DNA of 64,000 nucleotides from Psammoneis japonica. Taxonomy: Eukaryota. Below, piece after piece: positions 9,680 through 53,700 of this stretch. Below the pieces are notes generated by a model. That model was not told the DNA's origin and made no database searches. It saw only the letters and a list, made by a program, of their open reading frames with translations. How positions within the stretch are numbered: position 1 is the stretch's first letter; the number at the start of each line of letters is the position of its first letter. Location: positions 1 to 64,000 of the forward strand of contig QPGO01000124.1 in the NCBI GenBank assembly GCA_008632985.1. Direction: 5' to 3'. A program made the translations under genes and the position numbers.

Positions 9680-12600
9680 TTAGTAGCAGCGGTGAAAGTT
9701 CTGCACATGAATAGCGTCCGAATCATTCTCCCACCGACGCTTCATTCGGTTGATGACGACTTGCGGGACATTGTGATCATTGGTGTTGATCGAAGGTTTC
9801 CTGTGAATCTCAAACACCAGCACTGGTTGTTGCGATTTTCGCTTGTAAAATGCGTACTCCTGCAGTGTAGAATTGGTGTTGTCAACGATTCGGATGCTTG
9901 CAGTCGATGTCATAAAACGCTCGCGACAATCAGCGTGAGCAGCTCCAAGCCTCGACTCGTCAAATTCGTACCCTCGATGGGTTACAAAAAAGTCGTCCGC
10001 TGAAACAATTTCGACCGAGCTCGGAGCTAGGTACGGCGCTAGAACTTGGCGTGCAAAGTGCGATTTCCCTGAACCTGGTAATCCACGAAGGATAATGGTT
10101 GTTTGATCCTTGTTCGCGTTCTTGTTATCAAAGACGGTCTGGAACAAAAGACCCACGTCAGTCGATAGATCCGACAGTCGAACAAAATCAATGGACAGAA
10201 GTCGCTGAAGGGCACCCCATTCCGATTTCTGGATTATTTTGCTCCACAGAAATGACACAAGCGGTCGTAATCCATTGGTGGAATCCTTAGACATTGTCAA
10301 GTAGGATTGAACGAGGCCCGTCTCCCATCCCGCCGATAGTGCTTGACGCAAAGCGAGCCCTTGGTTTCTTTGGACGATTTCATTCGACGCCCAATAAGCC
10401 AAGTCTTGATCCAGTTGAACGACTGCGACTCGAGTGGTTTCAATAAAGTAAAGCAGAATGTCAATGGGGCAATTTGTGGCAAGATTCAGGCGATGTACAT
10501 AGTCGGGCAACAAGTCATCATTGATTGATTCGTCGCAGAGCCATTTCCAAAGAGCCAGCTCCCAGAGCAGTTGATTTGGTATCTCAGTCCAATGAGAACA
10601 CTGCAGGCCGCCCCAAGTAAGCAACGGAGGTTCTACAGTGCTGCTCTCTTTGAGTCGTGATGGTTTCTTCAGATGCAGTTTCACATTGTTCAGGTACCAG
10701 TTTGTCTTGATCTTGTAGCGACTTTGACCATCAGCCAAAACCATAACAACTCCTTCTATTTCTTCTTTGATAGACAAGTTATTGCGCACGAAGGCTAGAA
10801 TTCCTTCAAGCGTTTGTGCCTGTCCAACTGGAAGACTGATTGTCCGTGCAGTTGGTAAATTGAATTGTTTAGCTGACGCCGCCGCTTCTTCCCAGTCAAC
10901 ATACAATCCGGTGTCCATGTGGCGGATGGCAATTAGAACCATTTTGTCGCGATCATACGTAACAACTCCTTTCTGCTGACTTCGGTTGATGCATTCGAAC
11001 AGTGGAGTGAACCGCTGGTCCATCCAATACTTGGAAAAGGATTCAAAATCACAACTTGGCGTCCGTGCGACAAAGGTTTCGGCAGCGGGACTAATTTCCT
11101 GTCGTGTCGCCCACCTAACCCTGCCGGATACCGGAGACAAAAATGGAGAAACCAGAAATCCGTCAAGCTTTTCCAGAAGCAAACAACCTCTCACGTCAAT
11201 ACCGGTTCCATGATCAGACTCGAGTACCTCGTGCACGTTGTAGAATTTGTGGAATCTACGGGCGAGAACAGTTCCATCAATCGGAGAAACCAACAGTCCT
11301 CGGCATTCTTTCAGTCTGATATCAGAAACGTCTCCGGTTTGAAATGCAGCCAGGTCGGTGTAGTCGACAGAAATGTGCTCGTCATATCTTCGAAGTTGAA
11401 TATATCGGTTAGTACGACTGAGACGCTTGAAATGATTTAGAACGTCGCCACTCAAATCAGCGAACGGCGATCGACGACGATTCATCCTAGTAGGCATGGT
11501 GGAGTCATTTGTGTACGTCAATGTTAAAACCAAACGAATAGGTTTGCCGAAACTTGTCTCGCGCGCATGGCCACCTTGTACCTGGCGTGGCAAGTCGTTA
11601 GCTTCAGAAGCTTTAGTGCTAGCTTGATGCCAGATTGTCATGTGAGCAAACCGGTTCAAAGATCGAGGAATATCTTTACATCTTCTGGACTTTTCCGCAA
11701 TAGCAACGTCGAGAGCGGCGATAGATTTACTCCATAAGAGGCCACGTACTTCCACATCGACCTTTTCTCCTTCGAGGCCGCCAAATACTTTGCGCATTTC
11801 TTCTTGAGATACCTGATTCATATGCGCCAGCGTCACGTGAAGGTTTGCCACTCGTCCAGACTTGTCGATTCTTTTCTTCAGTTCGGTGGGAAGATTGCCC
11901 AGTATCTCCTCGTGATCGAATGGATCAACGTCAAGAGCAACATACTCAACCTTTTTGCAGGGCCAGAGATTATTACTTGTCGTTTCTACGGCGGGTAGCT
12001 TCTCATCGGAAAGTTGTTGAAGCGCAGTCAGCGTCTCTTTCAGGCTTATATGATGCACGAAACGACCACCACGATTCTCCCATGGCGTCTTCAAATCAAG
12101 CCTGTCATCAATCAAAATGCAACCTTTTCGCGACCACCTCGGTTTTTCTCTAATGCTTGTGCAAATGTTTACCTTGATGCTCCCAAGATGCTTCTGACAC
12201 CACCTCTTCTTTTGGTCACCGAATTTGCCTTGGCCAGCTGAGAGAATTTCGATATGATCCTCTCCAAACATGCTCTGTATAGCATCAAACAGATCTTGGC
12301 CTTTCTCGGTCCAAGCGAGTGATCCAAAGAAGTCCTCCGCATCACCAATAGCTTGCCACATTTCCGTGGGAGACATTTGCTCTGGGCTACGACCACCGCA
12401 TAATTCAGCGATTCCCCGATCGAAATCAGCCAGTACGCCATCTAGGTCGACGTAGACAACAGCGTGAGGACTTTTTGGAATCCTTCGTGGTGCTTCATTG
12501 CGTTTTACATCAAGCGCGCTGTTCCCAAAAGGAGCCGGCCACCGTGGTGGGGTGGGCACGTCTGAGAGCTCCGTCGAGCTGTCCTCTGTGAGAACAATTC

Positions 12601-12865
12601 CCTGTGGTGAAATGAATGCTTCACCGCAAGCCACGTTTAGTATCGTTCCATTGACGACGACTTGTTCCCAATTTTCCTCGTTAATCTGAGTTCCACGAAT
12701 GTGCTCGTACAAATTCACTGGTTTCTTTTTTGGGATCTTTAATTTGTTTCTCGCAATTTTCAAAACATCATGGAACGCAGAAGAATCATCTTTGACAACA
12801 ACAGCGGCAACAACTTTCCCCCGGTTGGCGCCGGCATTGCGACAAAGGCTGATTCGGACGGGCAT
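9680..12865 (-). CDS. Multidomain RNA repair enzyme: N-terminal small domain + HAD (NT5C-like) phosphatase + 2H phosphodiesterase + T4 Rnl1-like RNA ligase + P-loop polynucleotide kinase
   Basis: Intact intronless ORF. HAD: YVDLDGVLADFD and ILIDDR. 2H: LHVTLAH and AHMTIW. Rnl1: ECRGL, RRFHKFYN, EKLDG, TPLFE, EGVVM, YKIKTNWY. AAA_33/N4BP2-like kinase: LRGLPGSGKS, SADDFF, VDNTN, HNVP..VI.RM..RWE. Confidence 0.9.
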   Translation of the reverse strand: MPVRISLCRNAGANRGKVVAAVVVKDDSSAFHDVLKIARNKLKIPKKKPVNLYEHIRGTQINEENWEQVVVNGTILNVACGEAFISPQGIVLTEDSSTELSDVPTPPRWPAPFGNSALDVKRNEAPRRIPKSPHAVVYVDLDGVLADFDRGIAELCGGRSPEQMSPTEMWQAIGDAEDFFGSLAWTEKGQDLFDAIQSMFGEDHIEILSAGQGKFGDQKKRWCQKHLGSIKVNICTSIREKPRWSRKGCILIDDRLDLKTPWENRGGRFVHHISLKETLTALQQLSDEKLPAVETTSNNLWPCKKVEYVALDVDPFDHEEILGNLPTELKKRIDKSGRVANLHVTLAHMNQVSQEEMRKVFGGLEGEKVDVEVRGLLWSKSIAALDVAIAEKSRRCKDIPRSLNRFAHMTIWHQASTKASEANDLPRQVQGGHARETSFGKPIRLVLTLTYTNDSTMPTRMNRRRSPFADLSGDVLNHFKRLSRTNRYIQLRRYDEHISVDYTDLAAFQTGDVSDIRLKECRGLLVSPIDGTVLARRFHKFYNVHEVLESDHGTGIDVRGCLLLEKLDGFLVSPFLSPVSGRVRWATRQEISPAAETFVARTPSCDFESFSKYWMDQRFTPLFECINRSQQKGVVTYDRDKMVLIAIRHMDTGLYVDWEEAAASAKQFNLPTARTISLPVGQAQTLEGILAFVRNNLSIKEEIEGVVMVLADGQSRYKIKTNWYLNNVKLHLKKPSRLKESSTVEPPLLTWGGLQCSHWTEIPNQLLWELALWKWLCDESINDDLLPDYVHRLNLATNCPIDILLYFIETTRVAVVQLDQDLAYWASNEIVQRNQGLALRQALSAGWETGLVQSYLTMSKDSTNGLRPLVSFLWSKIIQKSEWGALQRLLSIDFVRLSDLSTDVGLLFQTVFDNKNANKDQTTIILRGLPGSGKSHFARQVLAPYLAPSSVEIVSADDFFVTHRGYEFDESRLGAAHADCRERFMTSTASIRIVDNTNSTLQEYAFYKRKSQQPVLVFEIHRKPSINTNDHNVPQVVINRMKRRWENDSDAIHVQNFHRCY

Positions 12866-13587
12866 CAAAGACTGATTACTGCAGTGTGTTCGAATTTTTT
12901 CGCGTGTTTTCTTGATATGAATTCAATGTAATGGGGGCGTTCTGGATCTGGATGGATGGGGAGGGTACACCCGCTCCAGACGTGCATTATCTGGGCGCCA
13001 GACGTGAACACACGGAAGAAACGGGAGCAAAAAAGATTTCGTCAGTGCTTGGAATGTTCACTTTAGATACTTCAATCCTGCGCATCTTGTACCGGCATGC
13101 GTACTTCAGTGGTTTATGAGAAATACCACATCAAGTGAATCAAAAGCGAATAAGTCTCAAATAGAAACATTGATTCAAGTCCTCCCTGTCAGATGAGATA
13201 CGAACGATGATAGGTGTCCCAATCTTGCGTTTTGGATGCCGGAATCGATGCCATGATAATACGAAGGACAATCACAAATCTGTGCGTTTATGTTTGTGTT
13301 TTTCGGAGCGGCCGCCATTGTCGTCGACCTGCCCCGGCTCCTTTCCCGTTGTCGGAGGGAGATTTTGGATTTTCTTTTGTACAGTATGGGGTAAGCCGCG
13401 CGTTCGCACGCACACCAACATCGAACAGAACACGGCGGAAGGCGGAACACTCGTGTAGTGCGACTGACTCTGCGCTATGCGACGGTTGAGGTTGTTGCTG
13501 GTTATTGCTGGCGTTTGTCGGAAGTGGACTCTTCACTCGATCTTTGCGTCAAGTCTGGTGTGTTCTTTTTCTTTAACAAACTCTACA

Positions 13588-14556
13588 ATGCTTGCTCGTC
13601 TGCTGGGGGTGCTTCTCTCAGCTTCCTTTGTCAGTTCTGCCCAAGCTTGGTCGTCGTCACTACCCTCCTCCTGGAGTCGCAATCAACAACCGGCTTTTAC
13701 GGGACAAGCCCCCGTGGATGTATATGACGCTACGGTTGAGCTTCTATGGCATTATACGAATGAAAAAAGAAGCCAGTATGGGTTAAGCCAGCTTCGATAC
13801 GACAGCGAACTTTCCAAGGCAGCACAGCAGCATGCGGTGTGTATGGCACGAAACGGGTACTTCTCTCATACCGGCTACACAGGATCAACTCTGGGGGATC
13901 GAGTCAAAACGACAAGCTACCGTTATAGATCGATTGGCGAGAATCTTTTCATGCAACAACCGAACAACAGTCCAGTAGCCGCAGTGGATGGATGGATGAC
14001 GTCGAAAGGCCATCGAGAGAATCTTCTCAACCCAGACTTTACTGAGGTCGGTTACGGATATTGTCCGGTAGGTGACACCCACTACTACGTCCAGGTGTTT
14101 GGCAAACCGATTGGCACCCCAGCAGTGCAGGGTGAGGGTGACACTCGAGAAATTCTGTATCTTTTGACGAATCAAGCGCGAAGGAACTCAAACTTGCATT
14201 ATCTGAGCTCGTCAGCCGAGCTTAACGCTGTGGCACAACAGCATGCGGAAAACGCTGCTCGCCGGGGTTCATTTTCATCCATTGATGACATTCGTCGCCC
14301 AGAGAAGTATCAATACAGTTTCTTTGCGGCAGGCTTTTTCCAGAGTGAACCCTTCAATGACCCGTACAGTGCAGTAAAAGGGTGGCTTGAGAAGCCTAAC
14401 TCCTCACTCTTGAGTGGTCAGTTCACCGATATGGGAGTTGGCCATGCTGTCTCAGGAGAATCCCATTACTATGTACAAGTGTTTGGTACTCCATCGCATG
14501 AAGGACCTCCGCAGACTCGCTTGATGGGCGGCGACAGCCGTCGCGTCTACTATTGA
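13588..14556 (+). CDS. Secreted protein with two tandem CAP/SCP (YkwD-like) domains
   Basis: Signal peptide MLARLLGVLLSASFVSSAQA. First domain TNEKRSQYGL..L.YDSELSKAAQQHA..MA..GYFSH...GENL...W..SKGHRENLLNPDF.EVGYG...YYVQVFG. A second degenerate copy also ends YYVQVFG. Confidence 0.9.
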   Translation: MLARLLGVLLSASFVSSAQAWSSSLPSSWSRNQQPAFTGQAPVDVYDATVELLWHYTNEKRSQYGLSQLRYDSELSKAAQQHAVCMARNGYFSHTGYTGSTLGDRVKTTSYRYRSIGENLFMQQPNNSPVAAVDGWMTSKGHRENLLNPDFTEVGYGYCPVGDTHYYVQVFGKPIGTPAVQGEGDTREILYLLTNQARRNSNLHYLSSSAELNAVAQQHAENAARRGSFSSIDDIRRPEKYQYSFFAAGFFQSEPFNDPYSAVKGWLEKPNSSLLSGQFTDMGVGHAVSGESHYYVQVFGTPSHEGPPQTRLMGGDSRRVYY

Positions 14557-17630: not shown

Positions 17631-19125
17631 TTAGTTGCATCGTATTTGGTAGCGTCCGCTTTCGGCAATGTTTCTCACTCCTTTGTAAGGTCGATAACTC
17701 TCCCCCGTCATGCTGAGGCCGCTGACACTCAACCCACTAACAGATGCAAGGGGAATCTTCCATTTCAGCGTAAGGTTCTGGTTCTCCTCTGGTCGTTTCG
17801 GGCCGTCCAATACCATTGTACCGTCCAGACGAGGTTTCTTTAACGTGTCGAGCTTTCCAATTGTCCACTTGGCAACCTTGGCCGCCTCATCATAGATCAC
17901 ATGCCCCACGGTCACGTTCAACTTGGTTGTGTTTACAGCTTTAGGAAAAGGAATAATTACAGCTACATCCTCCAACACCACCGGTCCTTTGCGAGAAGCG
18001 GAGAAAATAAGCGAACTAATCGATTGAACGCCCACATCAAGAACAATACGCCCACTGACGGAAGAAGCACCACCACCGGATGCTGCGGTTGAGTCTCCAT
18101 AGCTCCACTGTGGTTTGCAATGAATGGGTGGAGTAAACAGACGAGCGGCACTGTTTCGGACACGATATTTCATCAACTCAAAGTCGCCGTCGGGAGGTAC
18201 AAAAGAAACAACTCTGTCCATTTCATACCGTCCATATCGCACACATGGGTGAAAGGAGCAATCATCAATGACATCTGGATCCTTAAAGGTCAAGAGCAAA
18301 TCCGGAACTCCACTAAGATGGGATTGCACCTGAATCGATCCGGACACATCTGAGCTGACTACATTGCCGGCAACATCGACAATGGCATCGATTTCTTCCT
18401 TGATGTCAACATAGATTTCGTTCTGGGAATACTTGACTCCAGCTGCACGCCACGGCATGTTGGATATAGTTCCGCTCGGTAAAGCGTCTGAAACAATAGC
18501 ATTGGAGCCTCCGGTTACAACACTTTGTATCTAGCCACGAGCAGAGAGAAGATAGAGCGCCTGATAAGAGGTACAATTCTCTAGCTAGGAAGCACTCATA
18601 GTATAATACACTTCTTTCAAAACACACCTTTCCCATTACTGTCGGTGGTCGAATCATTGCCTTGAGAGCATTCGGCTCCACAGTTAGCGGCCACCCGTAG
18701 TCGACCATCTCTTCCAACAGCTGATAAACAGTGCTGAAATTGTCCTTGATCGCACTCTCATCTGCAGGAGAACCAAAGTAGTCCACAAATATGTCTGCTA
18801 CTCGATGCAAAAATTCCAATACCAGCAACGGACTGACTTCAGCGGGGCACACGGCTAGATAAGACAAGCCGTCTCGCAAAACATGAAACAGGTACAGGGT
18901 GCCGTGGTTGGTTTCTGGTACTTCCATGACGGGCGGAACAGTGAGATTCACATTGTCATCAAATGGAATAACAGAGCTGGCAGTCGAAAGTCCACCGTGG
19001 TGATTCAGCGAGACAGATGCTTGTTCCCAAAAGTAATCGCAAACAGCACGAGAAGTCACACCGCGAAAGTGTCGCTCAATCAGTACCTCTCCGGTGGGGG
19101 AAAGAATGAACAGAGACTGAATCAT
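17631..19125 (-). CDS. AP3M: AP-3 adaptor complex mu subunit, one intron (18531-18627)
   Basis: MIQSLFILSPTGEVLIERHFRG; DNFSTVYQLLEEMVDYGWP; PWR..GVKYSQNEIYVD; DDCSFHPCVRY; SFVPPDGDFELMKY; PYKGVR. Confidence 0.93.
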
Positions 19126-19850
19126 TGTTTCAGAAGCAGAAAATAGGTGGGGATTCAGACGAGCCTGTGTACAAAACGGTATTGGCGATGAGTATCTCAG
19201 CCAGTTGATGTGGTCGGTGGTTGTTGGCAGCCTCACAGCCTCACCGCCATTTTGCGGTTTTAGCCCGTGGTTCGTGGTTTTTTGTTTTTTCACCTGCCTT
19301 GTGCAGTCGCACCGATGGACGGACGGGCCGGTTCTTGGCTTGAGTGCGTGCGTCGTACGTCTTCTGGAGGCAAAGCTAAAAAGTACTACTGTAATACCGG
19401 TACGTAACTTCTAAATGCTCTTAGCTCTAGCTGTAGAAGTAGCTACTGGAGAGTAGAGTACTAGCTAGAGTAGTACGGTAGCTACTACTTTTAGAGTCTA
19501 GAGTAGAGAGGGTCCTACATAAACATGTAGGGCCTAGCTATAGGGAGGGCCACTGGTTTCATACTGTAGAGACTAGAAAACACCTTCCTCGGTACGAGAG
19601 CGAGAGAGTAGACTACAGGGGGTTAGACCTAGTAGCCTAGGGCCCCACTACTAACTCCTTCTGGAGAGTATAGTACCCTAGTAAAGCTTTGCATAAGAAG
19701 TTTGGAGTCGCAAGAATGCGAGGAACAAGAAGCGCCGTTTTGCGAAGTGTGGCAATGGGATTCGAAAATTGTTGTGCATTAGTTGCAAAGAACATAGCAA
19801 AATGTAGCACAAGAATGTAGCAAATGCAGCACAAGACCAGATGCTAAGAG

Positions 19851-28355: not shown

Positions 28356-29963
28356 ATGTCAGCAGAAAACTGCCCGTTCGAACTTGAGCGTCCTGACCGC
28401 TCTGAGGAAGAGCGACGCAAAGACCAATTCGTGTCTTTTGAAAGCCCCATTGATCCTGACGATCCAGATGGGCTTAAAACTACGATCGAGGTACGTAAGT
28501 TAGCTTCAACTGAACCGGAAGATGTTCTTACCTTCTGGTCAAACTTCGATGAACTTGTCAACGATCTCGGCGCGGCTGAAGGACAGCCACGTTTCCGGCT
28601 CGTGACCAGACTTATGACCGGAACACCAAAAGACGACTGGGAAATCGTCGTAAACGAATACGAAAACCGCGACCAAGTTACATTCGACACTTGTCGTGAA
28701 GAATTTCTGCTCCAACACATGGACAGAGAAATTGCCCTTGACACCAAGGAATGGCTTCAAAGCCTCAAGAAACCCAGGAACCAAACTGTCAAGTCATTTG
28801 TTGATGACATCCGTCGCTTTAATAAGTTGATTGATGTCATGCCTGCGCCAACCGAAGATGACGCCGAAAGAGTTCCGTCATTCACGGAAGCGGAACTATC
28901 CGCAATCCTTCGAAAATGTGGACCAAGATCATGGGCCGAAACTCAGACTAAAGCCCGTCTTCGCAACTTAAACTTGAACGACCAAGCTCAACACTACGAG
29001 ACTCTCCAACGTATGGAACAACGTGGTGACAAAGGGTCTGCCGACAACAACAGACGCAACAACAATCGGAATCGACGCAACAACGGTCAAAATGCGCGTC
29101 GCGGCCAGAGCAACGACCAAAATCGCGATGCCAGGAACAGGAACCAAAACAATCGTGAACAAACATGTCCAATCCATGGCGTTGTACATCCGAACGGTCA
29201 AGAGTGCAATGTCATCCGTCGTGAACGTGAAAATTATGAGCGGAACCGCGCAAATCGGAGTGCGCCTAATCAACAAAATGGCTCTCGAAACGAGCCGACA
29301 CACCGCTGTCCTACACGGAGCCGCACACGGAACGTCGAAAACAACAATGTGGACTCCAAAGCTAGTCGCTCCGCTTCTAACGATGTCGACAGCGTCGCGT
29401 CAGATGACATCAACGACATTTTTGAAGATGTCACGTCTCTTCTAGACGATTCCATCGAATCCGAAATAGAAGACAATCTCACCACGGAAGCACGTGTCCA
29501 GATGATTGACACTCATTCTGGAATGCACAAGTTCCGTGTTGCTCCACTCGATGCCGGCGCAAATCGCAATTTTGTGAAGCGCTCAGCCCTTCGCGGGATT
29601 CCTCACAAAATCAGTAAATGCAACGTTCCCGTTAAAGGCCGTTACAGTGCCGTTAATCTGCACGAGATTGCGACGCTGACATTGAAGTTCCCAGACTTCG
29701 CATCGTCCAAGAAGGTTTCCGTCGATGCTTGTGTGGAAGACAAAGCCGCAGGAAAACACGACATTGTCATCGGAAGAAAAACCGCCACAGAAATGGGACT
29801 CGTTTTTGATTTTCGACATCAAACAATCACGTGGGACGATGTCACCCTATCCATGCGATCCAAGGGCTCTTTCGACCAAGTCGAAGTTAATGCATTCATC
29901 CCGGCGATGCTGAATTACCCAAGTTCTTCCAGAATGCCGTCAACCGTCAGGTTCGAGGTATGA
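28356..29963 (+). pseudogene. gag: Gypsy gag + aspartic protease
   Basis: Capsid-like N-terminus (WLQSLKKPRNQTVKSFVDDIRRFNKL), Zn-knuckle-like CPIHGVVHPNGQEC, and protease APLDAGANRNF...HDIVIGR (DTG mutated to DAG). Frameshift near 29900. Confidence 0.85.
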
Positions 29964-30072
29964 CGAGCAATCGCACGACAAGCACAATTGTCGCGACATG
30001 GTTCTACGCTGCAAACACCTTGATGACGATCAACAGCACCAACTCATCGAACTCTTCGGATGACACCCGCAA

Positions 30073-31400
30073 TTGTTCGATGGCACACTTGGAGCTGCAC
30101 CCGGTAAACCCGTCCATTTGACCCTGAAACCAGGATCGCGTCCATGCTGTGCGAAAGCTTGCACTGTTCCGCAAGCGTTGTGTCCCATGGCTCGCAAAGA
30201 AGTGGATGAATTGGAAAAAATCGATGTCATCATGCGCAAACTTCACTCTCCCTGGGGCGCACCCTGTCTTTTCCGATCGAAGAAGAGCGGTGGCATCCGT
30301 TTCTTGTCCGATTTGCGGAAACTCAACGAGTGTCTCGAACGGCATCCATGTCCACTGCCTGTTGTCGACGACGTCGCATGGAAAATGAACGGCTTTACCT
30401 GTGCGACATGTTTGGACCTCAACCGAGGCTACTGTCACTTCGTGCTTGACGACGAGTCAAAAAAACTCTGCGGCATCATCCTGCCGTGGGGCAAGCATTG
30501 CCACAACCGCCTGCCGCAAGGAATCAAACCGGCAAGCGACATTTTTCAAGCTTGCATGACAGACATTTTTCATGACATGGAAGACATCATAGTTTGCATC
30601 GACAACATCATCCTCTTTGCCAAGAACGACTTCAACCATCACTGTCAACGACTCGAACTCGTCTTGCAACGGCTCCTCGCGAACAATCTTCACGCACATG
30701 TCAAAGAATCCCATCTCGCCGCCAAGACCGTCGACTGCTTAGGCTGTGCCATGACTGCAAAAGGCATTCAGCCTCAGAAAAAGAAAATCCCACCCTTGCT
30801 TCGCTTCGCTCGCCCTCAAAACCGTCGACAATTGCGTGGTTTCATCGGGTTCGTGAATTATTACAAGAAATTGTGGCACCGACGCAGCCACACTCTTACG
30901 CCCTTAACTGCGCTGTCATCAGACAAAGTCAAATTCAAGTGGACTGACGTCCACACGGAAGCTTTCAATCAGATGAAAAAAATTGTGGCGCGCGAAATCC
31001 TCCTCCGATTCCCCGACTTCTCTCAACCTTTCAAGATCTATCCGGATGCGAGTGATTGTCAACTTGGTGCAGTGATTGCTCAAGATTTTGATGATGGCGA
31101 ATGGCCAATTGCATTCTACAGCCGAAAATTTCTCAAGCGCAACGAAACTACACGACAATGGAAAAAGAGCTGCTGTCGCTCGTGGAAACGACCGAAAATT
31201 TCAAAAGCATCCTTTTTGGTCATCGATGCCACCCATTTGCCGATCACAAAAATCTTACATTTGACAAATTCAAGTCAGAACGCGTCAAACGCTGGCGTTT
31301 ACTTCTCGAGGAGTGCGATTGCTCTTTCGAGTGCCTGCCAGGCCACAAGAATGTCGTGGCTGATTTTTTGAGTCGCCATCCCCTTGTCCAAGTCGATCAA
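30073..31400 (+). pseudogene. pol: Gypsy reverse transcriptase and RNase H
   Basis: SPWGAP, IRFLSDLRKLN, LDLNRGY, RLPQG, VCIDN (YxDD site), QLRGFIGFVNYY, DASD, IAFYSRK. After a frameshift at ~31130: NYTTMEKELL and DHKNL. Confidence 0.92.
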
Positions 31401-32573
31401 AGCGATTACGAGGAAATGACTTCGTTGGAAATCGATCCTTCAATATTCCCCGTTACTTTCGACATTATCGCCGACCATCAGAAAAAAGATTCTGCTCTTC
31501 AGCAACGACTCGACAAGTCCGAATCCTACTCAGCCGAACTGTTCAACGGAAAACAGATTATCCTTTACAAGAACAAGATTGTCCTCCCTCCAACGCTTTT
31601 TCCTGCAGTTCTACGGTGGTACCATGAAACTCTCTGCCATCCTGGTGCTAATCGCACCTGCCAAACTTTGGCTTCACATTTTTACATTCGCGACATGCAG
31701 ACGAAAGTCCGTACTTTTGTCCGTAAGTGCCGCACGTGTTCCAAATCCAAGCGCACTACGGCAAACTATGGCGAATTACCTCTTCCAGATACTACTTATA
31801 AACCTTGGCAGGCAACTCAAGTCGATCTTTTCGGTCCCTGGACGTATGCCGACAAAAATGGTGTCGATCGCAAAATCAGAGCCGTTTCAATTATTGATGT
31901 CGCAACCCGTTGGGTCGAACTCGCGAACTATAAGTTCAAAACGTCCGAAGACATTTCACTTATCGTCGATCGCGAGTGGTTTTGTCGCTATCCGCGACCA
32001 GAAATTGTCATTTATGACAACGGTTCCGAATTCACTTCCGAGTTTACAGATCTCCTCTACAGTTATGGTGTTAAACCGAAACCTACAACAATCAGAATCC
32101 TCAAGCCAACGCGTTCGTTGAACGTATTCATCAAGTGATAGCCGATTCTCTCCGTGCGATGGATCTCCCTTCTCGCGATCATGATGAAGACACAATTCAT
32201 GGAATTTTGCAATCCGTTGCATGGGCCTTGCGCAGTACTACCATACTGCCCTTATGTCGTCTCCCGGACAAATTGTCTTCGGTCGAGACATGATCATTTC
32301 TGCTACTTATCTTGCGAACTGGAAAATGATTAATACCCGTCGCAAGCGCGATGTCCTACGCAATAATCTCCGCGAAAACGCAAAACGTCTTACTTACGAC
32401 TACAACATCGGCGATCAAGTCTTCGTTATGACAAAGACATCCAACGCAAACTCAACACCAAAGATGGTCCTTTCTGTATCGTACGTGTCCATACCAATGG
32501 AACCGTTACCATCCAGCGCTCGCCTCACGTCACTGAACGTATCCATATCCGCCGTCTTCACCCTGTCTTCTAA
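31400..32573 (+). pseudogene. pol: Gypsy integrase (HHCC + DDE), with frameshifts
   Basis: WYHETLCHPG...CRTC; QVDLFGP; IIDVATRW; YDNGSEF. Ends [10 protein letters not shown]. No chromodomain. Confidence 0.9.
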
Positions 32574-44770: not shown

Positions 44771-47700
44771 ATGTATAACGAAAGCCCTCCAACCAACTCG
44801 GGGCGTGATCGCGCCATTGAGACTCTGATCGATATGGAGCCACACGGTGCTTTTTATCGGGCGGCTCGTGCTCTGGTAAGTCTCGTTCGTACTGATTTCT
44901 ACGTGAATTCTACGTTAGAATATCTGTGAAACGGCAGTTAAAGTGGGGAAATGTGTAACTGATGTGACCTGATTTGCTGTACAACAACAAATTTGCAAAC
45001 ACGTCTCTGTTATACAAAGAAGCATGTCATTTTGTTTTGAAATTGCGGTTGAGAAGGACCTGTTGCAGTCGTGCCTATTTTGTTGACTCACTTTATTCTT
45101 GCTTTCTCGCTTTAGGACGAAGCGGTTCCGTTTGCTCTGTTGAATCGTCCCAATTTGGTGACTCGGGCCGCTCTCGTGGAACAAGCCAATGCGTTATCCA
45201 AGTATGAGATTGATTCAGCGCAAGCCTATAGCAAAAGCATGACGAGTCCTGAAAAATTAAATTGTTGCGTCAAACCCGATAATGTGAATCAAGATGGCGT
45301 GTTGAAGCATTTTGCGAAAATTCTCAAAATACAGCAACACAAATCCACCGCAGCTTCGTCACAATTGGTTGCGTCCCTTGGAAGAATTTATGGAAAGGAC
45401 AGTGAGGCCTTGCTCAAACACGTCATGGGACACGAGGCCTTGAAAGCGGATGCTGCTGCCGCTCTTCCCAAACAGACCGAGGAACAGACGGAGGAACAAG
45501 AGGAGGAGGAGGAAGATGAATTAAAGTCCACCGCGAGCTTGGAATGTATCGTGGGGAATGCCTGTAAACTGGTCGTGTCAGAAGACAAGAAGAGTTCTGC
45601 GGCGTTGGATGGATTGTTGATTGCCGTCTTGACCATTTTAACGGGATGCATGGTGACGGACGACGAGCAAGACGAAGAACAGAACCCTAATCCCAAACTT
45701 GGACGTAAAGCGGCTAGCAAACCGTCTCGGGTGGATACGCTCAAACCCAACATGCCAGCTCTACAAGTGGGAGGTGTCTTGTCACTGCTAGCCACAGTCA
45801 AGGATGACGACAAGAATACCTTTTCGCTGGATCCCAAACTCATGGCGTATTTGGGTAAGGCCGCGTCGGTTTACGAAGAGCGGATTGAAATTCAAAAGGA
45901 GCGTGTACTGGCACGCATGCAAGCCGAGGCTGCGGAAAAGGATGCGGAACCCGAAATTCCCTTTGCTCCCGTGACACCACCGTCGGCACGAGTCGTCAGT
46001 AGTGGTGAAGAAGAAACACCCAGCGGTGACAATGACGAGGGTGTCGCTACTCCTGTACAACAACAAGAAGCCAGTAATGACGGTGACGGAGCAGCAGCAG
46101 AAGCCGCCCATGTATCCGACAATGACGATGATGACGACGACGACTCGGCCGATGACGAGCAGGCAGCAGAAGAGGCTCTTCGACGACTGGTGGCTGCGGG
46201 TGGTGCGAGTGATGTCAGTGAAGACGATGCAAGGCTTTCTTTGTTGGGGGATGAGGAAGCACTCCGGAGACTCGAGGCGGCGGTTGGCATTCGCCCGATA
46301 ACGACAGCTCTGATGAGGATGGCGATGATCACTATCATCAGTTAGACGATGCACCAGACTCTGAAAATCCACAAGCGGACGGTGTTGGTGAGGAGGGAGT
46401 GGAGATTCATCGAGAGCATGATGATGCTGATGATGATGATTCGTCATCCTATTCGTCTGGACACGACGACGACGATGATGTGGTGGATGGAGAAGATGAA
46501 GAAGACATTGACGATGTGGACAGCGAAGATGAAGAAGATGACATGTTGCGCCAAGCACTCGCGCTTAGTTTGGCGGAACACGCTCGCGCCGAAGCCACTC
46601 ATGCCGCCGAAGAAACGGCGGATGCTGCCATCTTAAACGACGAAGAGGAAGGAGAAGAGCAGGGTGGCAGTGATGAAGCCCCATCCGCGGAAAGCGTTAA
46701 GGATGCTTCCGACAAGGAACCTTCCAATAATGATGACGTTTTGGAAACCAAAGGGAGCGCAAAGGATGATACAGACGAGAGTCTCCCGTCTTTGCCGGAT
46801 CCCCCGTCGAAGTATCCTTTTCAATCATGGCTTCGAAGCGCTGGGACAATGGAGGATGCTGACTTTCGCCCTTTGCAGCGTGTGGCTAGGGCCGGTTCGG
46901 ATGAAGTGCCCAATAACCCTTACCTCGACCCGTCTGCACTCTCCAGCTTTGGAACCATGCCTGTTGCTCATGTTGTGGTCAACTTGCTACAGAATGCTCT
47001 CTTGACCTTGCAAGACGAGAATGGAAAGGAAGGAGACATGGCCGATAAAGGATCTTCCAAAGATCGCTCTTGGTACAACTCCGTTCCTGGAGGTGTTGGG
47101 TCGTCTCTCTTTGTGCCTCTAACTCACGACGTTGAAGCATCCAAAGAGGAAGAAAAGGGAGATGCGCCCTCGGACAGCAAAGCCTCGACCCAGCTACTGG
47201 TTTCCGCTCTAATCTTGTTTTCGGAACAAAGAGACCTAGCTATTGAAAGCTTGCGACAGGCCATTTTGTTGGAGCATCAAAACACGGTCGACGATGATTT
47301 GGAGGAAGAGCTCAAGGAACAAGATGACGGAGGCAGAACCCCAACTTCGGACGAAGAAGACGATCCTGCCATGGCTCTAGCAATGAACTATGCTTCTGCG
47401 TCTGCTTCGGATTCGTTGGAAACCAAGGGCATGACGAGGAAAGCGAAAGCAAAGAGGCATGATGCCGCCGTGCTGCTCAAGTCGCTACAGAAACGTACGG
47501 CAGCGTGGAAGCAGAGAGTAGAGCTGTATTCTCAGTGCACCCTTTTGGTGATGAAGTGCCTGCGAACTCTTTTGCAGTCTATAACACGAAAATGGTTAGA
47601 TTCGAAATCTCATCCTGGCGACGATTTTCTTTCTCTGGGAGAACGTGCAGACTCCATTTCGTCCACAGCAAGAGCCAAGCTTTCCGAGACTCTGAATGTT

Positions 47701-50700
47701 CTCATGTCGACCACCACCTATCGGTCATTCTCAGCGTTGTTCCCTCGTGACAATGTTGACGAGGTAGAAGAGCTTTTTCTGCCTCTTCAATTGTATAGAG
47801 AGGCAGTCCTTTTGTGGGGAGAGTGTATACCGCTCCTCTACTTAACGCCAAAATCCCGATTCGGTCTAGTTTCAACTCTGATTGGTAAAAAGTATCCCGA
47901 GTCAGAAGAGGAGTTTCTGGCCTTTGAGGCACTCGATGGTCTGAAAACGCTTCCGTCGTCGGAATGGCATTCAAATTTGCACCGGCTGCGTTTGCTTTCT
48001 CAACGATTGTGTGTGAGCGATTTACTCGACACATTCGTTTCTCGTCCTATCTTGTATGACCCTGATGAATCCGAAGAGGCTCACGAAATTGCTAAGCTAC
48101 GTGAGGAGAGAGGGAAGGCATCGCGGGAGCCCGACCCAGATCGTGCCAGCAATGTGGTGGCAAAAATTGGCGTCGCATGTGCAAAGCTTGGCATATGCGA
48201 GGGCGGTGATTTGCGACAGCTGTATCTTGCTCTTTGTCACAAGTGCAATGTTAGGACGATCCTGTGGGATGGATTTCTTGCTTCTAATGGAGATACTTCC
48301 GAAGACAGACTTTCGTCATCTGTGGCATCTGCATCCGCCTCATCAGGGAGTATTCTTCGCGTTTCGGCAAACCCGTCTAGCAGTTTGCAATTTGATTCTT
48401 CTAAGTGTTCGGATTCTATCGCGGTGCTGTCAACGTCTGCCGCCTCCTCCAACGGACCCTCGGCTCATCAACGAGCTTCAAAGGTTTGGGGCACAGTTTT
48501 GTCATCGACATGCTTCAGTCCGAAAACGGGAGTGCATCGCTGGGCTGTTCGTTTAGATAAATGTGAGCGCGGCCATGTGTTTGTCGGTGTTTCGACATCG
48601 CAGGCAAGCATGAGAACATATGTTGGCGGAGATAAGTATGGATGGGGAGGTAAGATCACTGTCTCTGCCGTTGTGGTGGAAGGGATAACTCTGTTTTTTT
48701 CCAAGTCGCATATCTCAGCACTTTCGGTTTTTGTTATTGTTGTTACAAAAGTGATTGGGACGCAAGCTCTGTGGCATGACCGTCGCAAGGTACGCAACCT
48801 GCGTGTTGAATTCGTAATGCCAATGCTAGTCGCCTTCTTTTCCATTTTTCTCGTCGACATTTTATTCTCACACACGTTGTGTTCATTGTTTTGCATGTAG
48901 ATTCGGGGCGACTACGGAGCAACATTTCGAACTGGTTCAACAATAGTCGTCACTCTTGATACAGATGCTGGTACCGTGAGTTACAGCTCGTGGAAAGACG
49001 GCAGTAACTCATCCGCCGCATTCTCCGTCGATGCTCTGATTCCTTCTGCGAGTTCTCCTTCTCGTCGGCATGCCGCTGGTGGCGGTGGTATAGTGGAAGA
49101 TTGGGGAGTGGCCTTTGAGGGCCTCCCTCTCGATTCTCGGCTGTATCCCGCGGTCGGCCTGTATCAACGGGATGACCGAGTGACACTTCTCACTGTAGAG
49201 AGCGGGGGGCAATCATCATTGCGTGACGGAGTTGGAGGTATGGTGGGTGGTGGCGCTTGTTTCTATCCTAGGAATTTACTTACTGTTGGACGAGGGATCG
49301 ATGGTGTGAGCCATCACAGACGCATGGTACAAGTAAGGCGCCATAACGATCTCCTTGCTTGGGATGGCGTGCAATACGTAACTGATATGCTGGATAGAGC
49401 GCTTCAATCGTTGCAATCACCTGCCGGCCCAGACAATGTTATCCTAACGTCGGTACTCCCAAGTATTGCAGCATCCATATGCCTGATGCCTCCTTCAATT
49501 CCTGTGCTTTCTGCAAGAAGTGCATTGGCGCTTTTACCTCAACTAAACCAATGCATTCATGCGATTGACTCCCTTGTTGTTTCGCAACAGAAACAGAACA
49601 AAATTCTCTTCCATGAAGGGCTGAAGGACGGCGAATGGACAATCCGAGCCACGGGATATTCGGGAACAGAAGCTAGCAACGAACACGAAGAGTATGTTGT
49701 GAACTTTTCCAAAGTAGAGAAAGGTGGCATCGTTATCGGTTTTCAAGGGACTGGAGTCGGTACCACGGGCAAGTCAAAGAACGGTCTTGTCTCCATTAAG
49801 GGCACCGTATGTGGGTCCGCGTTGAGCTTTGTGGAGGAATGGAAAGATGCTGCCACGGGTTCACCCGACGAAGCAGATGATAGCCCCTCTTCATGTGTGA
49901 TTTCGGCACGGTTGAGTTTGGATGGTTGCAAATTTGAGGGATCTTATAGAAACGTCCAGTATAGTACAACGGGCCGTATTGCAGGCGTTTTGGGTAGCGA
50001 GGAAGGGAAAGCCCCAGGAGCAGTACTTCCAGAGCGCACCAATAAGGCAAATCATGAGCCTCTCCTTTCTTGCGAAGTGTTACTGTGTCTTGCCCACGGC
50101 CATCTTGCCGGATTGCTTGGTTCAGATGTGTCAGGGAATCATACCAATGGTACAGACTCAACAAGACCCGAAGGCTACAGTGAATCAGATTGGAAAGAAA
50201 AGTGCAGTGCATTGAAGCGAATTGTGCTGCGTCCGCTGTTCTCTCGTGGTCCGGCCGATCTTGATTCAAACAGTATCATGGAATCACTGAGACGTTGCTA
50301 CTCATTTCCTCTCCACGGTGGCGCAGCTGTTGATCGTGGCGAATATCGGGCTTTGGATGCCTTAGACGCAACACTTTCGTCAGTACACATGAAGAAGTCT
50401 CCTCGTAATGCGCTTCCTTCCCTAACCAATGTGGTCGAACTCCTCGACGACGAGGTCACAACGTTAGCCGGAGGCAAGGGGTCCTTGCACCCGATATGTC
50501 CTTCAGAATATACTGCATCGAGGCGTCAACTTATCGCAGCGATGGTTTATCACTCGAACTCACACGAGCTATTGATGAGACATTGCAAGGAAAAGAACAC
50601 CCGAGAGTCTGTGGGCGATGTCGTAATTGCTCTATGGAGGGGGGCGTTACGAATAATGGAAGATGGACTGCGAAGCATAATGGCAGCGAGTTCCAAGCGT

Positions 50701-53700
50701 TCAAAGCGTGAAGTAGCTATTGCCTTTTGCAAGATGACCAACCGCAAATCATCCTTCTTGTACTTATTGCGGCCATGTCCAAACACACTCCCGGCTGCAG
50801 ACTTGGTCAACGAGTTTTCTTCCTTCTACTCAACTGTTGAGTGCGAGTCGGACCTGGACTATATCGAGGAAGAAGTGGATTGCGCGGTCCGTAGGGCAGT
50901 CCTCCGCATGGTATCACTCCAAGAAATGAAGTCGCTCCTTTCCACAGACAACCGCAGTCTTCAGAAATGCGTCCAGTCGGTGGTTGCGCAGGAGTGTTGC
51001 GTAGCGGCACTTCCTCGGTTGTTGGGAAGAGGGTTAGCGGAAGAAGTAGTGATTACTGCGGCGGATCGCAGCAGATTGAGCAACACTGATCTTGGGGGAT
51101 ACTACCTAACACACCTCTCTGCCGCAGGCGATATCGCCGAGGATGTTCAAAGAACTTGTCGCGGTCTTTTTCAAGATATAGCCGAGCTTCTTCGCAGAGG
51201 ATTGAATCTGAACAGAGGGGGGGCATCTTCCACAATCGCGTCATCCTCCAACTCTCTAAATCTTGCAATATTGGCGTCCTTCACTACTACGATTCGTTCT
51301 TCGGATGTTGAAGACATCGTGCTGGAGAGTAAGATTATTGATTACGTATCTGACATAATTCGTTTGAACAGACCTGCAGTTGGAAATAATCAAGTCAAGG
51401 TTGAGGAAGACGATAAAGCCAACGATGACGCGATTCGAGTTTGCTATCAGGCGGTCGGGCGTGACGTGTCAAGAGCAGTTTTGCGTGCTTCGGTATCGGT
51501 CTTGCATGTCATAAGCTTTCAGCTTGCGCGGCAGTTATCCTTGACTGGTGAAGCTTTTAGCGAGACGGGCACGATTGCCTTGAGGAGGTGTGTCAAGCTT
51601 TTACATGAGGAAATCCAACAAACAATGCCGTTTATTCGATCGCTCGTAGCGGATCAAATAGAAGAATACCAAAGAAAGCAGAGAGATCGACAGTGGGAGA
51701 GATGGTGTGACGTTTGCCCATCAAACAGTGAAAGACCATCCGCGAAATCTCGGATAAAGTTGAGGAAGAAAGGGGATAAAGCAGGCGTCCTTTACCTAGT
51801 CGAACAAGGAGACTTCCCAATTCCACCCGGAGTTTCCACCAGCCCGCAAAAATTATCTTCGCGTATCAACACCGTCTCGCCGAGCAGCTCAGTGCCCGTA
51901 GAGCGAATGCAGCTGAAGCTTGGCGCTTCGTGCCACCAATTCATTTCTCAGCTGCTTCACATTTTCTCCGCGATGGTGAAGCTCCCTTCATCTTTGTCTG
52001 TCCTGCACAAAAGTAATGAATGGGCACCGGTGCTCTTGCGTGCTATTGGTCTTAAATCGAATTTGGACGGTATCCATTTGAATGGCTCGGGGTTTGTATC
52101 GAAGCTTGAAGGCGTATATAAAGTTCCAGCGCGATACAGAATACGAATTCTCAGGTTGTTATTGCCGGTGTTATCTCCTTACAAGCCAAATGAGACGCTA
52201 GTTAGTGGGTTCTTTTCCCTCGTTGGTTTGTCCTCGATGTCTGATGACTCTGAAGGGTCTCGTGATGATGAAGATTCTGTTCCGCAAGAGATTGTTTCGC
52301 TGCTACGTCACCTCTACAATGGGCCCTTTGGCGCCTGGCGACAGGCTATTCATCGCATTATTGACGAAGGTTTCGCATCTCCCATCGGTGAAAGGGAGCT
52401 TAGTCACTTGCAATTGGGGATGCTAGCATTCCTCTCTGGCTCCATGGGTACCGTCTCAAGGGGATCCTTTGTTCTTCTCAAACCTGCCGCCGCACTCTCA
52501 GTTTCCGCGGACACACAGTCGTCAGGAAGCAGTAAGAGCCACAGCGGCTCTGGAAGTGGTCCTTCCGCGTCGGGCGCAATGCCGCACCATGTTGTAGGAA
52601 ATGGAACAGAAGGCGTCATAGCTGGGCTTTGTCGTTTTGATGCATCTGCTGGCATGGTTAGCAGTGTTGATGTCAAGAACGGCACTTGTGAAGTTGTATT
52701 GACCACACGGTATCAGATCCCATCGTTTGGTGCCCATACTCTATCGCAATCTACACTCCGTGCGCGTCCGGTGGAGACTTCAGATAGGGCCGGCAGTAGC
52801 GGTAGATCGACAATGACAGTACGAGCACTTCGCGCGCCCCTCTCTGATGTTGTGCATGCTGAGGAAGTACCGCTTCTTCTGGGGACCTCTGTTCCTACCG
52901 CGAATCTTTTGGGCTCTTTGCTATCATCATCGTTGCATTCTCTTTCTGTTGCGCTGACAGAGAGGGAAGTAATTGCCCTCGAGAAGGAAGAAGATGGCGA
53001 ATGCAAGCCGTCTGAGCATCGCGAAGATAGAAGAGAAGCGAAATCTACGTCAGCTGACAACGTGTTTCGTCTAAGCGGTTCTTTGATGGCGTTGCGGGCT
53101 GCAACAACCGTTCTTGCCGATGAAGAACAGATTTCTTCATTCTTAAAGTCTTCTCTTTCAAAGGAGATTCTCTTTATAGCGCTGAAGGTGGCAACTGGCG
53201 GTCAGCATAGCAACGCCACTTTGCCCAAGGTATTGGACTCCGCTCGTTTTGAAAACCTATCCTACCTTCCCAGTCACGAGGCAAAGTTCCGCTACTTGCT
53301 ATCAATGCTTAGAGAATTGAGTTTCAGGCAAAACGCCTTAGATTCATCACCGATTTCATACTGGGAGGAACGACTTGCCGATGATGGCGCAAAGGAAGGG
53401 GGCAACGTCGATACAGTACCACCTGAAGACAGCGCGTCCAGCATGACGGGGGGCTACAGTACACCGCCTGCAACAACTGGCTCAACTACAGGTGTTTCGT
53501 CGCTGCGTGATACTTCAACTGCTGGTGACGAAAGTGACCAGGGTTCTAGCGACCGCGTAAATGAACCTAGCTCTCAGAGGTCGTCACGACCATCTGGCTC
53601 CAATAGCGCAGAGGATGAAGACGAGGCTGATTCCACGGCTGCTGCGCACCTACGAGAGGCTGCCATTGCCCAAATGGCGGAACTTGGACTTCCACGCCCT

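Follow-up and report, generated by a model that had tools for sequence, protein, structure and literature searches.

A compact diatom gene predicted to unite RNA end healing and sealing in one polypeptide, with kin among long protist and giant-virus proteins

What is understood of RNA heal-and-seal repair comes mainly from phage T4, the Pnkp/Hen1 systems of bacteria and the Trl1 enzymes of fungi and plants, and a gene of the diatom Psammoneis japonica raises the question of whether one cellular protein might carry all of the required steps by itself. The gene lies on the reverse strand of the window analysed here, a stretch of 64,000 nucleotides (contig QPGO01000124.1 of assembly GCA_008632985.1, positions 1 to 64,000 of the forward strand), at 9680..12865. 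An earlier note, made by a model from the letters alone, had read it as one intronless open reading frame (ORF) encoding a phosphatase, a cyclic phosphodiesterase, an Rnl1-type ligase and a kinase, in an order unlike that of known repair enzymes and possibly put together from modules of viral or bacterial origin. We followed up this proposal using profile searches, predicted structures and a comparison of relatives. Going by sequence and structural models, we consider it likely that the product of the gene is a self-contained enzyme for healing and sealing RNA ends, in which a 2H phosphoesterase domain and a HAD phosphatase domain would act in sequence, and that it serves RNA repair.

Reading frame and predicted catalytic domains

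The frame is open over 9680..12868 (-) and contains 1062 codons when counted from a TTG (translated as P0001); residue numbers throughout this work are those of P0001 and hence begin at this TTG, one codon before the ATG. The first ATG is the second codon of the frame, at 12865. Since an in-frame stop stands 18 codons upstream of the start, and the relatives P0003 and P0011 likewise begin with MPVR, we took 9680..12865 (-) as the complete coding sequence, which extends over 1061 codons from the ATG at 12865 to a stop at 9680-9682. A second, orthologue-like protein, P0002 (1095 amino acids, ~50% identity), can be aligned as one stretch across residues 2-1059 and the gene therefore needs no intron. 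The single intact frame proposed at the outset was thus borne out, and all motifs that had been listed are present within a few bases of the positions given for them. With 0.47-0.49, the GC content of the gene equals that of its flanks. Taking together the intact frame, the same domain order in P0002, the matching GC content, the ordinary neighbours and the transcript available for P0011 (see below for both), the gene looks real and maintained.

For structure prediction, the protein was folded as two overlapping halves, residues 2-470 and 463-1062, each with an alignment of relatives. The model of the N-terminal half (mean predicted local distance difference test score, pLDDT, 84.8) comprises three separate domains, namely a beta-grasp domain at ~3-80, a HAD Rossmannoid domain at ~133-288 and a 2H domain at ~304-455. 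The model of the C-terminal half (mean pLDDT 80.8) contains the ligase, a disordered stretch at 735-786, an all-helical region at ~757-912 and a P-loop kinase from ~922 onwards. The four catalytic assignments made earlier hold in profile searches as well as in predicted-fold comparison. Taken with the single-stretch alignment of P0002, the ligase, CPD and deoxyribonucleotidase profile scores given below are much better than chance would yield.

The predicted Rnl1-type ATP-dependent RNA ligase (nucleotidyltransferase) domain spans residues 472-734 (10667..11455, -), with K567 as predicted nucleophile, and carries ECRGL (11294-11308), HKFYN (11237-11251), EKLDG (residues 566-570; 11159-11173), EGVVMV (10739-10756) and YKIKTNWY (10694-10717). 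It matches the Pfam family RNA_lig_T4_1 (PF09511) over residues 521-725 with an E value of 8.8e-21 (75.2 bits vs a cut-off of 28.3) and the PHROG RNA ligase family phrog_562 with 5.2e-30. When PDB was searched with the single sequence, T4 Rnl1 was the one clear match (E 1.1e-6); every nucleotidyltransferase motif is aligned, and EKLDG falls opposite KEDG of T4 Rnl1. Fold comparison (VIA) agreed in making T4 Rnl1 the closest solved match, as 5tt6 gave Z 26.3 at a root-mean-square deviation (rmsd) of 2.2 over 239 aligned residues, compared with Z ~21 for the fungal Trl1 ligase domain (Trl1-LIG). The score against the NCBIfam equivalog model of T4 RnlA, TIGR02308, was 53.1 bits and thus below the cut-off of 242.25. 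As judged by sequence and predicted fold, the domain is a member of the Rnl1 family and not an RnlA equivalog. Residues R523, K541, F542, K567, D569, G570, E625, E705, G706, K719 and K721 align with the motifs of T4 Rnl1. All five diatom-type proteins keep these residues, as do nearly all of the 159 ligase domains that were aligned; for K567, D569 and G570 the count is 156/159.

The putative 2H phosphoesterase occupies residues 304-455 (11504..11959, -) and was recognised by its profile, its predicted fold and the paired motifs H344-x-T346 and H409-x-T411, which lie within LHVTLAH (residues 343-349; 11822-11842) and AHMTIWH (residues 408-414; 11627-11647). Residues 358-438 match the Pfam family tRNA_lig_CPD (PF08302) with E 1.6e-6 (28.2 bits vs a cut-off of 23). 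A Foldseek search with the half containing HAD and 2H returned the fungal Trl1 KIN-CPD structure 6u05 as top match (E 1.4e-7), along with CNPase (5e-7), and fold comparison of model residues 303-454 yielded mouse CNPase (9etl_A) with Z 13.7, rmsd 2.6 and 147 aligned residues. The 2H part alone found nothing significant in the single-sequence PDB search. Both histidines and both threonines are kept in 68-70 of 71 aligned sequences. Two stand-alone 2H proteins, P0124 (231 amino acids) and P0136 (198 amino acids), share 43-46% identity with the window 2H domain over the whole length and are closer to it than are the 2H modules of the long relatives described below. This gives a hint that a free-standing gene may have been the source of the diatom 2H domain.

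The HAD phosphatase, at residues 133-288 (12005..12472, -), was assigned to the NT5C or 5'(3')-deoxyribonucleotidase type from profiles and predicted fold. Its first motif is contained in YVDLDGVLADF (residues 139-149; 12422-12454), and residues 135-284 match the PHROG family phrog_2643, 5'-3' deoxyribonucleotidase, with E 4.3e-23. Run against PDB, a profile built from the N-terminal half together with its relatives found the human and mouse mdN and cdN enzymes (E 2.5e-8). The closest solved folds were 3bwv_B (Z 15.0, rmsd 2.8, 141 aligned residues) and human cdN (4yih_B, Z 14.3). Pfam PF06941 gave no match in the window protein at E values up to 1, and its scores in the long relatives reached 18-20 bits vs a cut-off of 24.8; on these sequence grounds we class the domain as a divergent branch of the NT5C family. 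The earlier proposal that DLDG marks a HAD phosphatase was supported. All matches were to NT5C-type enzymes, none to the T4 Pnkp phosphatase was seen in the PHROG, PDB profile or fold comparisons, and we rejected a T4 Pnkp-type assignment. The motifs expected of a HAD enzyme can be placed at D141-x-D143 (I), S210 (II), K220 (III) and D254-D255 (IV). Of 117 sequences, at least 113 retain each of D141, D143, D254 and D255, serine or threonine stands at position 210 in 115/117, and K220 is kept in 115/117.

At the C-terminus, residues 919-1062 (9683..10114, -) form a P-loop kinase, predicted to be a polynucleotide 5'-kinase, with GLPGSGKS (K935 and S936; 10061-10084), SADD (D958), DNTN (D996 and N997) and RW (R1045 and W1046). 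Residues 918-1049 match the ATPase family phrog_2071 with 2.8e-17; the polynucleotide kinase family phrog_505 (8.3e-4) and the kinase regions of N4BP2 (E ~3e-4) were found as well. K935 is kept in 97 of 98 aligned sequences and both D958, which would be the general base of the kinase, and D996 in all 98. Going by these alignments, the expected catalytic residues are kept across all four catalytic domains.

The domain list of the earlier note, accurate for the four domains that it named, was incomplete, as it missed an N-terminal beta-grasp domain with an adjoining motif and a helical domain in the gap between ligase and kinase. The all-helical middle domain (residues 757-912; 10133..10600, -), recognised from predicted secondary structure and pLDDT, follows the disordered linker at 735-786. 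Several long relatives align continuously from the ligase into the helical region, for example over query residues 468-895, and the domain is probably the C-terminal accessory domain of the ligase. It may or may not correspond to the C-terminal domain of T4 Rnl1, as the alignment to T4 Rnl1 ends at model residue 268-269, before reaching it, and no solved fold matched it in a fold comparison that barely tested the helical and beta-grasp parts. The beta-grasp (ubiquitin-like) domain (residues 2-97; 12578..12865, -) shows a beta-beta-alpha-beta-beta pattern with pLDDT values of 86-96. A PDB sequence search gave a weak match to the CIDE-N domain of DREP2 (E 0.33), and the nearest Atlas clusters were CIDE-N (0.88) and KHA (0.87), which serve as leads only, so that we refer to the domain provisionally as CIDE-N/KHA-like. 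It is present in 86 of 191 family proteins. Directly behind it, in a disordered linker with pLDDT <50, stands the motif PPRWPAPFG (12524..12550, -). The form PPR[WYHF]PxP is kept from the diatom-type proteins to the giant-virus forms, directly after the beta-grasp domain. Of the 86 proteins with a beta-grasp domain, 40 have the broader pattern P[PR][RH]xPxP adjoining it, and this pattern occurs 42 times in total in the 195,956 residues examined; its rarity elsewhere and its place after the beta-grasp domain therefore mark it as a position-specific linear motif.

Proposed order of reactions and likeness to known repair systems

The predicted activities can be arranged into a path from a broken to a sealed RNA. 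The 2H domain would open the cyclic phosphate to leave a 2'-phosphate/3'-OH end, the HAD domain would remove the remaining 2'-phosphate, or a 3'-phosphate, the kinase would phosphorylate the 5'-OH, and the ligase would seal the 3'-OH to the 5'-phosphate via a lysyl-AMP formed on K567. On this proposal, 2H and HAD would be consecutive steps at the 3' end and not alternatives. We read the two 3'-end chemistries as consecutive because of the product of the 2H relatives, abstracts on Trl1 describing a 3'-OH/2'-PO4 product, and because of the role given to the HAD domain in two sources: according to an excerpt of PMC7824862, PNK-HAD or 'Swiss-army-knife' HAD phosphatases remove linear phosphates after 2H enzymes have resolved cyclic ends, and an excerpt of PMC9503650 assigns the 'Swiss-army-knife' HAD type to RNA terminal-phosphate processing. 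Before a T4-like ligase could seal the break, an accompanying phosphomonoesterase would need to clear such a 2'-phosphate away. The order of 2H and then HAD would give a junction that lacks a 2'-phosphate, so that no Tpt1-type clean-up would be needed. The role of the protein is most likely the repair of RNA, such as tRNA, that has been cut by ribonucleases in stress or virus-host conflict, which fits both the occurrence of family members in giant viruses and their patchy distribution among protists.

The same logic is known from T4, in which a kinase, a HAD-superfamily phosphatase and a ligase repair breaks that carry a 2',3'-cyclic phosphate and a 5'-OH (see the excerpt of PMC3592404 on the role of Pnkp), the window side of this comparison being predicted. 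T4 divides the work between two proteins, Rnl1 and Pnkp, whereas the window has one; in addition, the window HAD domain is of the NT5C type, and the 2H and beta-grasp domains are added. With fungal and plant Trl1, which has the layout LIG-KIN-CPD, the window protein shares the combination in one polypeptide of an Rnl1-family ligase, a P-loop kinase and a 2H cyclic phosphodiesterase with two HxT motifs, and both the CPD profile and the KIN-CPD structure match the window 2H domain. However, the order in the window is HAD-2H-LIG-KIN, the HAD phosphatase is absent from Trl1, and T4 Rnl1 is the closer match of the window ligase. With its different order and additional HAD domain, the window protein is not a Trl1. 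The Trl1 ligase requires a 2'-PO4 at the 3'-OH end, and the Trl1 kinase prefers GTP. Trl1 leaves a 2'-phosphate at the junction, as stated in an excerpt of PMC5824351, whereas the window enzyme is predicted not to.

Two further groups of proteins resemble parts of the window protein. Giant-virus ligase-kinase fusions and baculovirus Pnk/Pnl, the latter laid out as ligase-kinase-phosphatase, likewise hold an Rnl1-type ligase together with a kinase within a single chain, and we know of no giant-virus or baculovirus fusion of this kind with a HAD-2H pair ahead of the ligase. The order HAD-2H-ligase-kinase found here is thus unlike that of T4 Pnkp and Rnl1, of Trl1 and of the ligase-kinase-phosphatase enzymes, in agreement with the original reading. 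The NT5C enzymes cdN and mdN on one side and CNPase on the other provide the closest solved folds of the window HAD (Z 14-15) and 2H (Z 13.7) domains, with the catalytic motifs in place. These enzymes are stand-alone proteins that have been studied on mononucleotides, while in the window protein both are joined to ligase and kinase in one chain and are presumed to work on the ends of RNA.

Kinship with long protist and giant-virus proteins, and the genomic setting

In an exhaustive HMMER search covering 1.84 billion representative proteins, we obtained 7891 matches at E<=0.001, 57 of them at E<=1e-30, and the best 150 of the 7891 were listed. Six domain profiles derived from the query were mapped onto 158 proteins and, in the end, 191 were classified: 72 long forms, 12 shorter proteins with ligase-HAD(-kinase), five diatom-type proteins, four giant-virus ORFs and 98 single-domain or other proteins. 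The commonest multi-domain layouts among the 158 were beta-grasp-ligase-HAD-kinase (n=34) and ligase-HAD-kinase (n=10), mostly in proteins of 1400-2500 amino acids. According to Pfam, the long forms add a 3'-5' exonuclease (PF01612), an R3H domain (PF01424) and a C-terminal prim-pol (PF18188/PF23162), for none of which the window protein gave a Pfam match. With a relaxed iterated profile, a 2H core was detected in 45 of the 158, located in long forms between exonuclease and kinase and having at least two HxT/S motifs in 44 of the 45 cases; the long forms therefore contain every module of the window protein. The long-form order runs beta-grasp, ligase, helical region, HAD, exonuclease, 2H, R3H, kinase and prim-pol. 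Long forms with an organism name come from Pelomyxa schiedti and Cymbomonas tetramitiformis. A conserved region of ~270 residues that lies between the helical extension of the ligase and the HAD domain in long forms (e.g. P0004, residues ~430-700) is absent from the window protein; its consensus includes 'EGKIxGMWExF...DLRIDLQP...HNGN.EYAL.LVQYG' and it has no Pfam match.

Set against each other, the window protein and the long proteins have homologous beta-grasp domains, PPRxP motifs, Rnl1 ligases with helical extension, NT5C-type HAD domains, 2H cores and kinases. The window protein differs in lacking exonuclease, R3H and prim-pol, in carrying HAD and 2H before instead of after the ligase, and in its length of 1061 vs 1400-2500 amino acids. 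Its order of beta-grasp, HAD, 2H, ligase, helical domain and kinase recurs in full only in P0002 among the 191 classified proteins; P0011 (874 amino acids, a complete MMETSP transcript) and P0048 (967 amino acids) also have HAD ahead of the ligase. The combination had been put forward as unlike T4, Trl1 and baculovirus enzymes in its order, and this holds, while the modules are common to a widespread protist and giant-virus family that has in part been named already.

We built FastTree trees for ligase (158 tips), HAD (115) and kinase (97), midpoint-rooted and free of taxon labels. In all three, the diatom-type sequences group together inside clades made up mostly of long forms. In the ligase tree a diatom-type clade of seven members (support 0.83) sits within a clade of 101 (0.91), and in the kinase tree the diatom-type sequences are nested through several nodes with support of 0.82-0.97. 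The trees support common descent with the long forms, and reduction from a long form would agree with them, although these midpoint-rooted trees do not prove that direction. The best reading of these sequence comparisons is that the window protein is a reduced, domain-permuted offshoot of the multi-domain proteins of 1400-2500 amino acids found in protists and giant viruses.

Viral relatives were sought in IMG/VR contigs. A scan with the single protein P0004 found no match in the viral contigs, and one with an alignment of 18 long forms (A1) matched 421 stretches, of which 251 encode relatives. Five loci (L001-L005) encode a whole long form of 1686-1756 amino acids as a single ORF in DNA of 25-36% GC, on contigs of up to 624 kb, two of which have 'GVMAG' in their names; most of the other 70 loci hold stand-alone ligase or HAD genes. 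A structural comparison of the ligase-kinase half with BFVD gave as its best match a 'tRNA ligase/uridine kinase' of Bodo saltans virus (891 amino acids, E 6.4e-30), followed by phage RNA ligases and by ligase-containing proteins of an iridovirus ('polynucleotide kinase/ligase'), CroV, Tupanvirus and Marseillevirus. A viral kinship of the modules, as suggested in the earlier note, is consistent with the giant-virus long forms and with the BFVD matches.

The HAD type is named 'Swiss-army-knife' in excerpts of PMC7824862 and PMC9503650, both of which cite Burroughs & Aravind 2016. Searches of the literature found neither experimental work on the family nor a description of the diatom arrangement, many subscription papers lying outside the coverage. 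The long proteins themselves were reportedly described by Burroughs and Aravind as 'Swiss army knife' RNA repair proteins. Within the literature searched, diatoms were not found linked with RNA ligase, polynucleotide kinase or 2H phosphoesterase, apart from an unrelated lipid paper, nor Phaeodactylum with tRNA ligase, RtcB or Trl1, nor RNA ligase, R3H, exonuclease, Prim-Pol and HAD phosphatase together; on RNA repair by ligase and polynucleotide kinase in giant viruses, only a jumbo-phage review came up. PMC10946435 mentions no diatoms, stramenopiles, protists or algae.

The ORFs near the gene are ordinary eukaryotic genes according to a Pfam scan, which found no viral hallmark genes among them, and on account of these neighbours we rejected the possibility that the gene lies inside a viral insertion. 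Divergently oriented and ~600 bp upstream of the gene start, an ORF of 359 amino acids at 13477-14556 (+) encodes two CAP (cysteine-rich secretory protein) domains, and a mannosyltransferase fragment is among the nearby ORFs. An adaptor-complex medium (mu) subunit is spread over two overlapping ORFs at 17631-19293 (-), of which 18406-19293 holds the longin/sigma-like N-terminal part and 17631-18458 the mu homology domain; the split suggests a short intron or a frame change. A Ty3/gypsy-type long terminal repeat (LTR) retroelement with gag-like, reverse transcriptase, RNase H and integrase ORFs lies ~15 kb away at 28356-32138 (+), its overlapping frames suggesting that it is degraded or frameshifted. 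Further along, an open frame of 3666 codons extends over 48976-59976 (+) and is adjoined on the same strand by ORFs at 46399-48900 and 59942-60889.

Weighing the proposed role and what it would mean

Several observations weigh against the proposal of a self-contained RNA repair enzyme. For the kinase, the Pfam score against AAA_33 is 26.5 bits, 0.5 bit under the cut-off of 27, the kinase part alone found nothing significant in the single-sequence PDB search, and fold comparison was effectively a tie between PSTK (Z 13.5), Kti12 (12.7), PFK-2 (12.5), mammalian PNKP (12.4) and CthPnk (12.0), so that its designation as a polynucleotide kinase comes mainly from the context. The 2'-phosphate regiochemistry presumed for the 2H step is carried over by analogy from the CNPase and Trl1-CPD relatives only. 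Characterised NT5C enzymes act on free mononucleotides, and the window HAD domain is presumed to act on RNA ends. The packing between domains is predicted without confidence (predicted template-modelling score, pTM, 0.46 for residues 2-470 and 0.54 for 463-1062), and the beta-grasp and middle helical domains have no assigned role in the proposed repair. Moreover, P0011 and P0048 are without 2H, and P0003 (Amphora coffeaeformis, 759 amino acids) is without HAD and 2H. Set against residues 136-478 of the window protein, the latter keeps VVYHLDG, a remnant of HAD motif I (VVYVDLDG in the window protein), and then jumps to the segment RRSPFADLSGDVLN that precedes the ligase and hence lacks what lies between; this is either a real deletion or the result of a gene model that splices the region out. 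Either the full domain set is dispensable in some lineages or some gene models are wrong.

How far do these observations favour other explanations? The main rival, which we hold to be rather unlikely, is a housekeeping tRNA-splicing (perhaps unfolded-protein-response) ligase, a functional analogue of Trl1 in place of a damage-repair enzyme. The Trl1 heal-and-seal set of ligase, kinase and 2H cyclic phosphodiesterase is indeed present, in a cellular gene among ordinary eukaryotic neighbours and in an architecture kept at ~50% identity in P0002. Yet the distribution is very patchy, since among the best 150 of the 7891 matches only P0002 has the full order and P0003, P0011 and P0048 have parts of it; the ligase stands closer to T4 Rnl1 (Z 26.3; sequence E 1e-6) than it does to Trl1 (Z ~21, with no match by sequence), and the kin are giant-virus and protist multi-tool proteins. 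We consider it quite improbable that HAD and 2H act on free nucleotides (2',3'-cyclic NMPs or deoxynucleotides), leaving only ligase and kinase to work on polynucleotides. That the solved structures most closely related to the HAD domain belong to the mononucleotidases cdN and mdN, and that CNPase, the best fold match of 2H, was assayed on cyclic mononucleotides according to PDB entry titles, would suit such a division of labour. It is harder to square with a fusion to ligase and kinase that is kept across at least 88 multi-domain family members, with the match of the 2H domain to the profile and structure of Trl1 CPD as well, and with the assignment of this HAD type to RNA terminal-phosphate processing in the two excerpts cited above (PMC7824862, PMC9503650).

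An enzyme that processes or repairs DNA ends, in the manner of PNKP with a ligase, would be very unlikely: the substrate of a 2H cyclic phosphodiesterase exists on ribose alone, the ligase is a member of the Rnl1 family of RNA ligases and not of the DNA ligases, and the long forms carry R3H too, even though the kinase fold matches that of mammalian PNKP (Z 12.4), the HAD relatives prefer deoxynucleotides, going by their molecule names, and the long forms have a DnaQ-type 3'-5' exonuclease and a prim-pol. We see hardly any chance that the gene is an inactive relic of a giant-virus insertion. Relatives on giant-virus contigs and the retroelement 15 kb away could be cited in its support, but the frame is intact over all 1061 codons, every checked catalytic residue is kept, the GC content does not depart from that of the surroundings, the Pfam-scanned neighbourhood is free of viral hallmarks, and the occurrence of the same order in P0002 at ~50% identity implies long maintenance.

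We therefore prefer to regard the window protein as an RNA end-healing and sealing enzyme. A more far-reaching version of this proposal, which we offer tentatively as a possibility on the doubtful side, is that a giant-virus-type module was domesticated by a cellular eukaryote as a compact, Tpt1-independent heal-and-seal enzyme. In it, the CNPase-like 2H domain would make the 2'-phosphate end, the NT5C-like HAD domain would be an RNA 2'-phosphatase and the T4-like ligase would make a clean 3'-5' bond, while the CIDE-N/KHA-like beta-grasp domain and the PPRWP motif might recruit the enzyme to damaged RNA (e.g. ribosomes or tRNA), or oligomerise it there, during viral attack or stress. To our knowledge, RNA 2'-phosphatase activity has not been described for the NT5C family.

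The set of modules and its logic have already been predicted in the comparative-genomics literature, as far as the excerpts at hand go, and do not amount to a new principle. The compact, permuted and cellular form in a diatom is apparently unstudied and a good experimental handle. A compact, intronless eukaryotic protein that unites four predicted catalytic steps is tractable for biochemistry, provides a test case for an NT5C-type HAD domain as an RNA 2'/3'-end phosphatase downstream of 2H, and could serve as a one-enzyme reagent for joining RNA that ends in a 2',3'-cyclic phosphate and a 5'-OH. As regards the family, it offers a way into the function of the large multi-tool proteins of protists and giant viruses, and for diatoms a route to asking whether they repair RNA that is cut in virus-host conflict.

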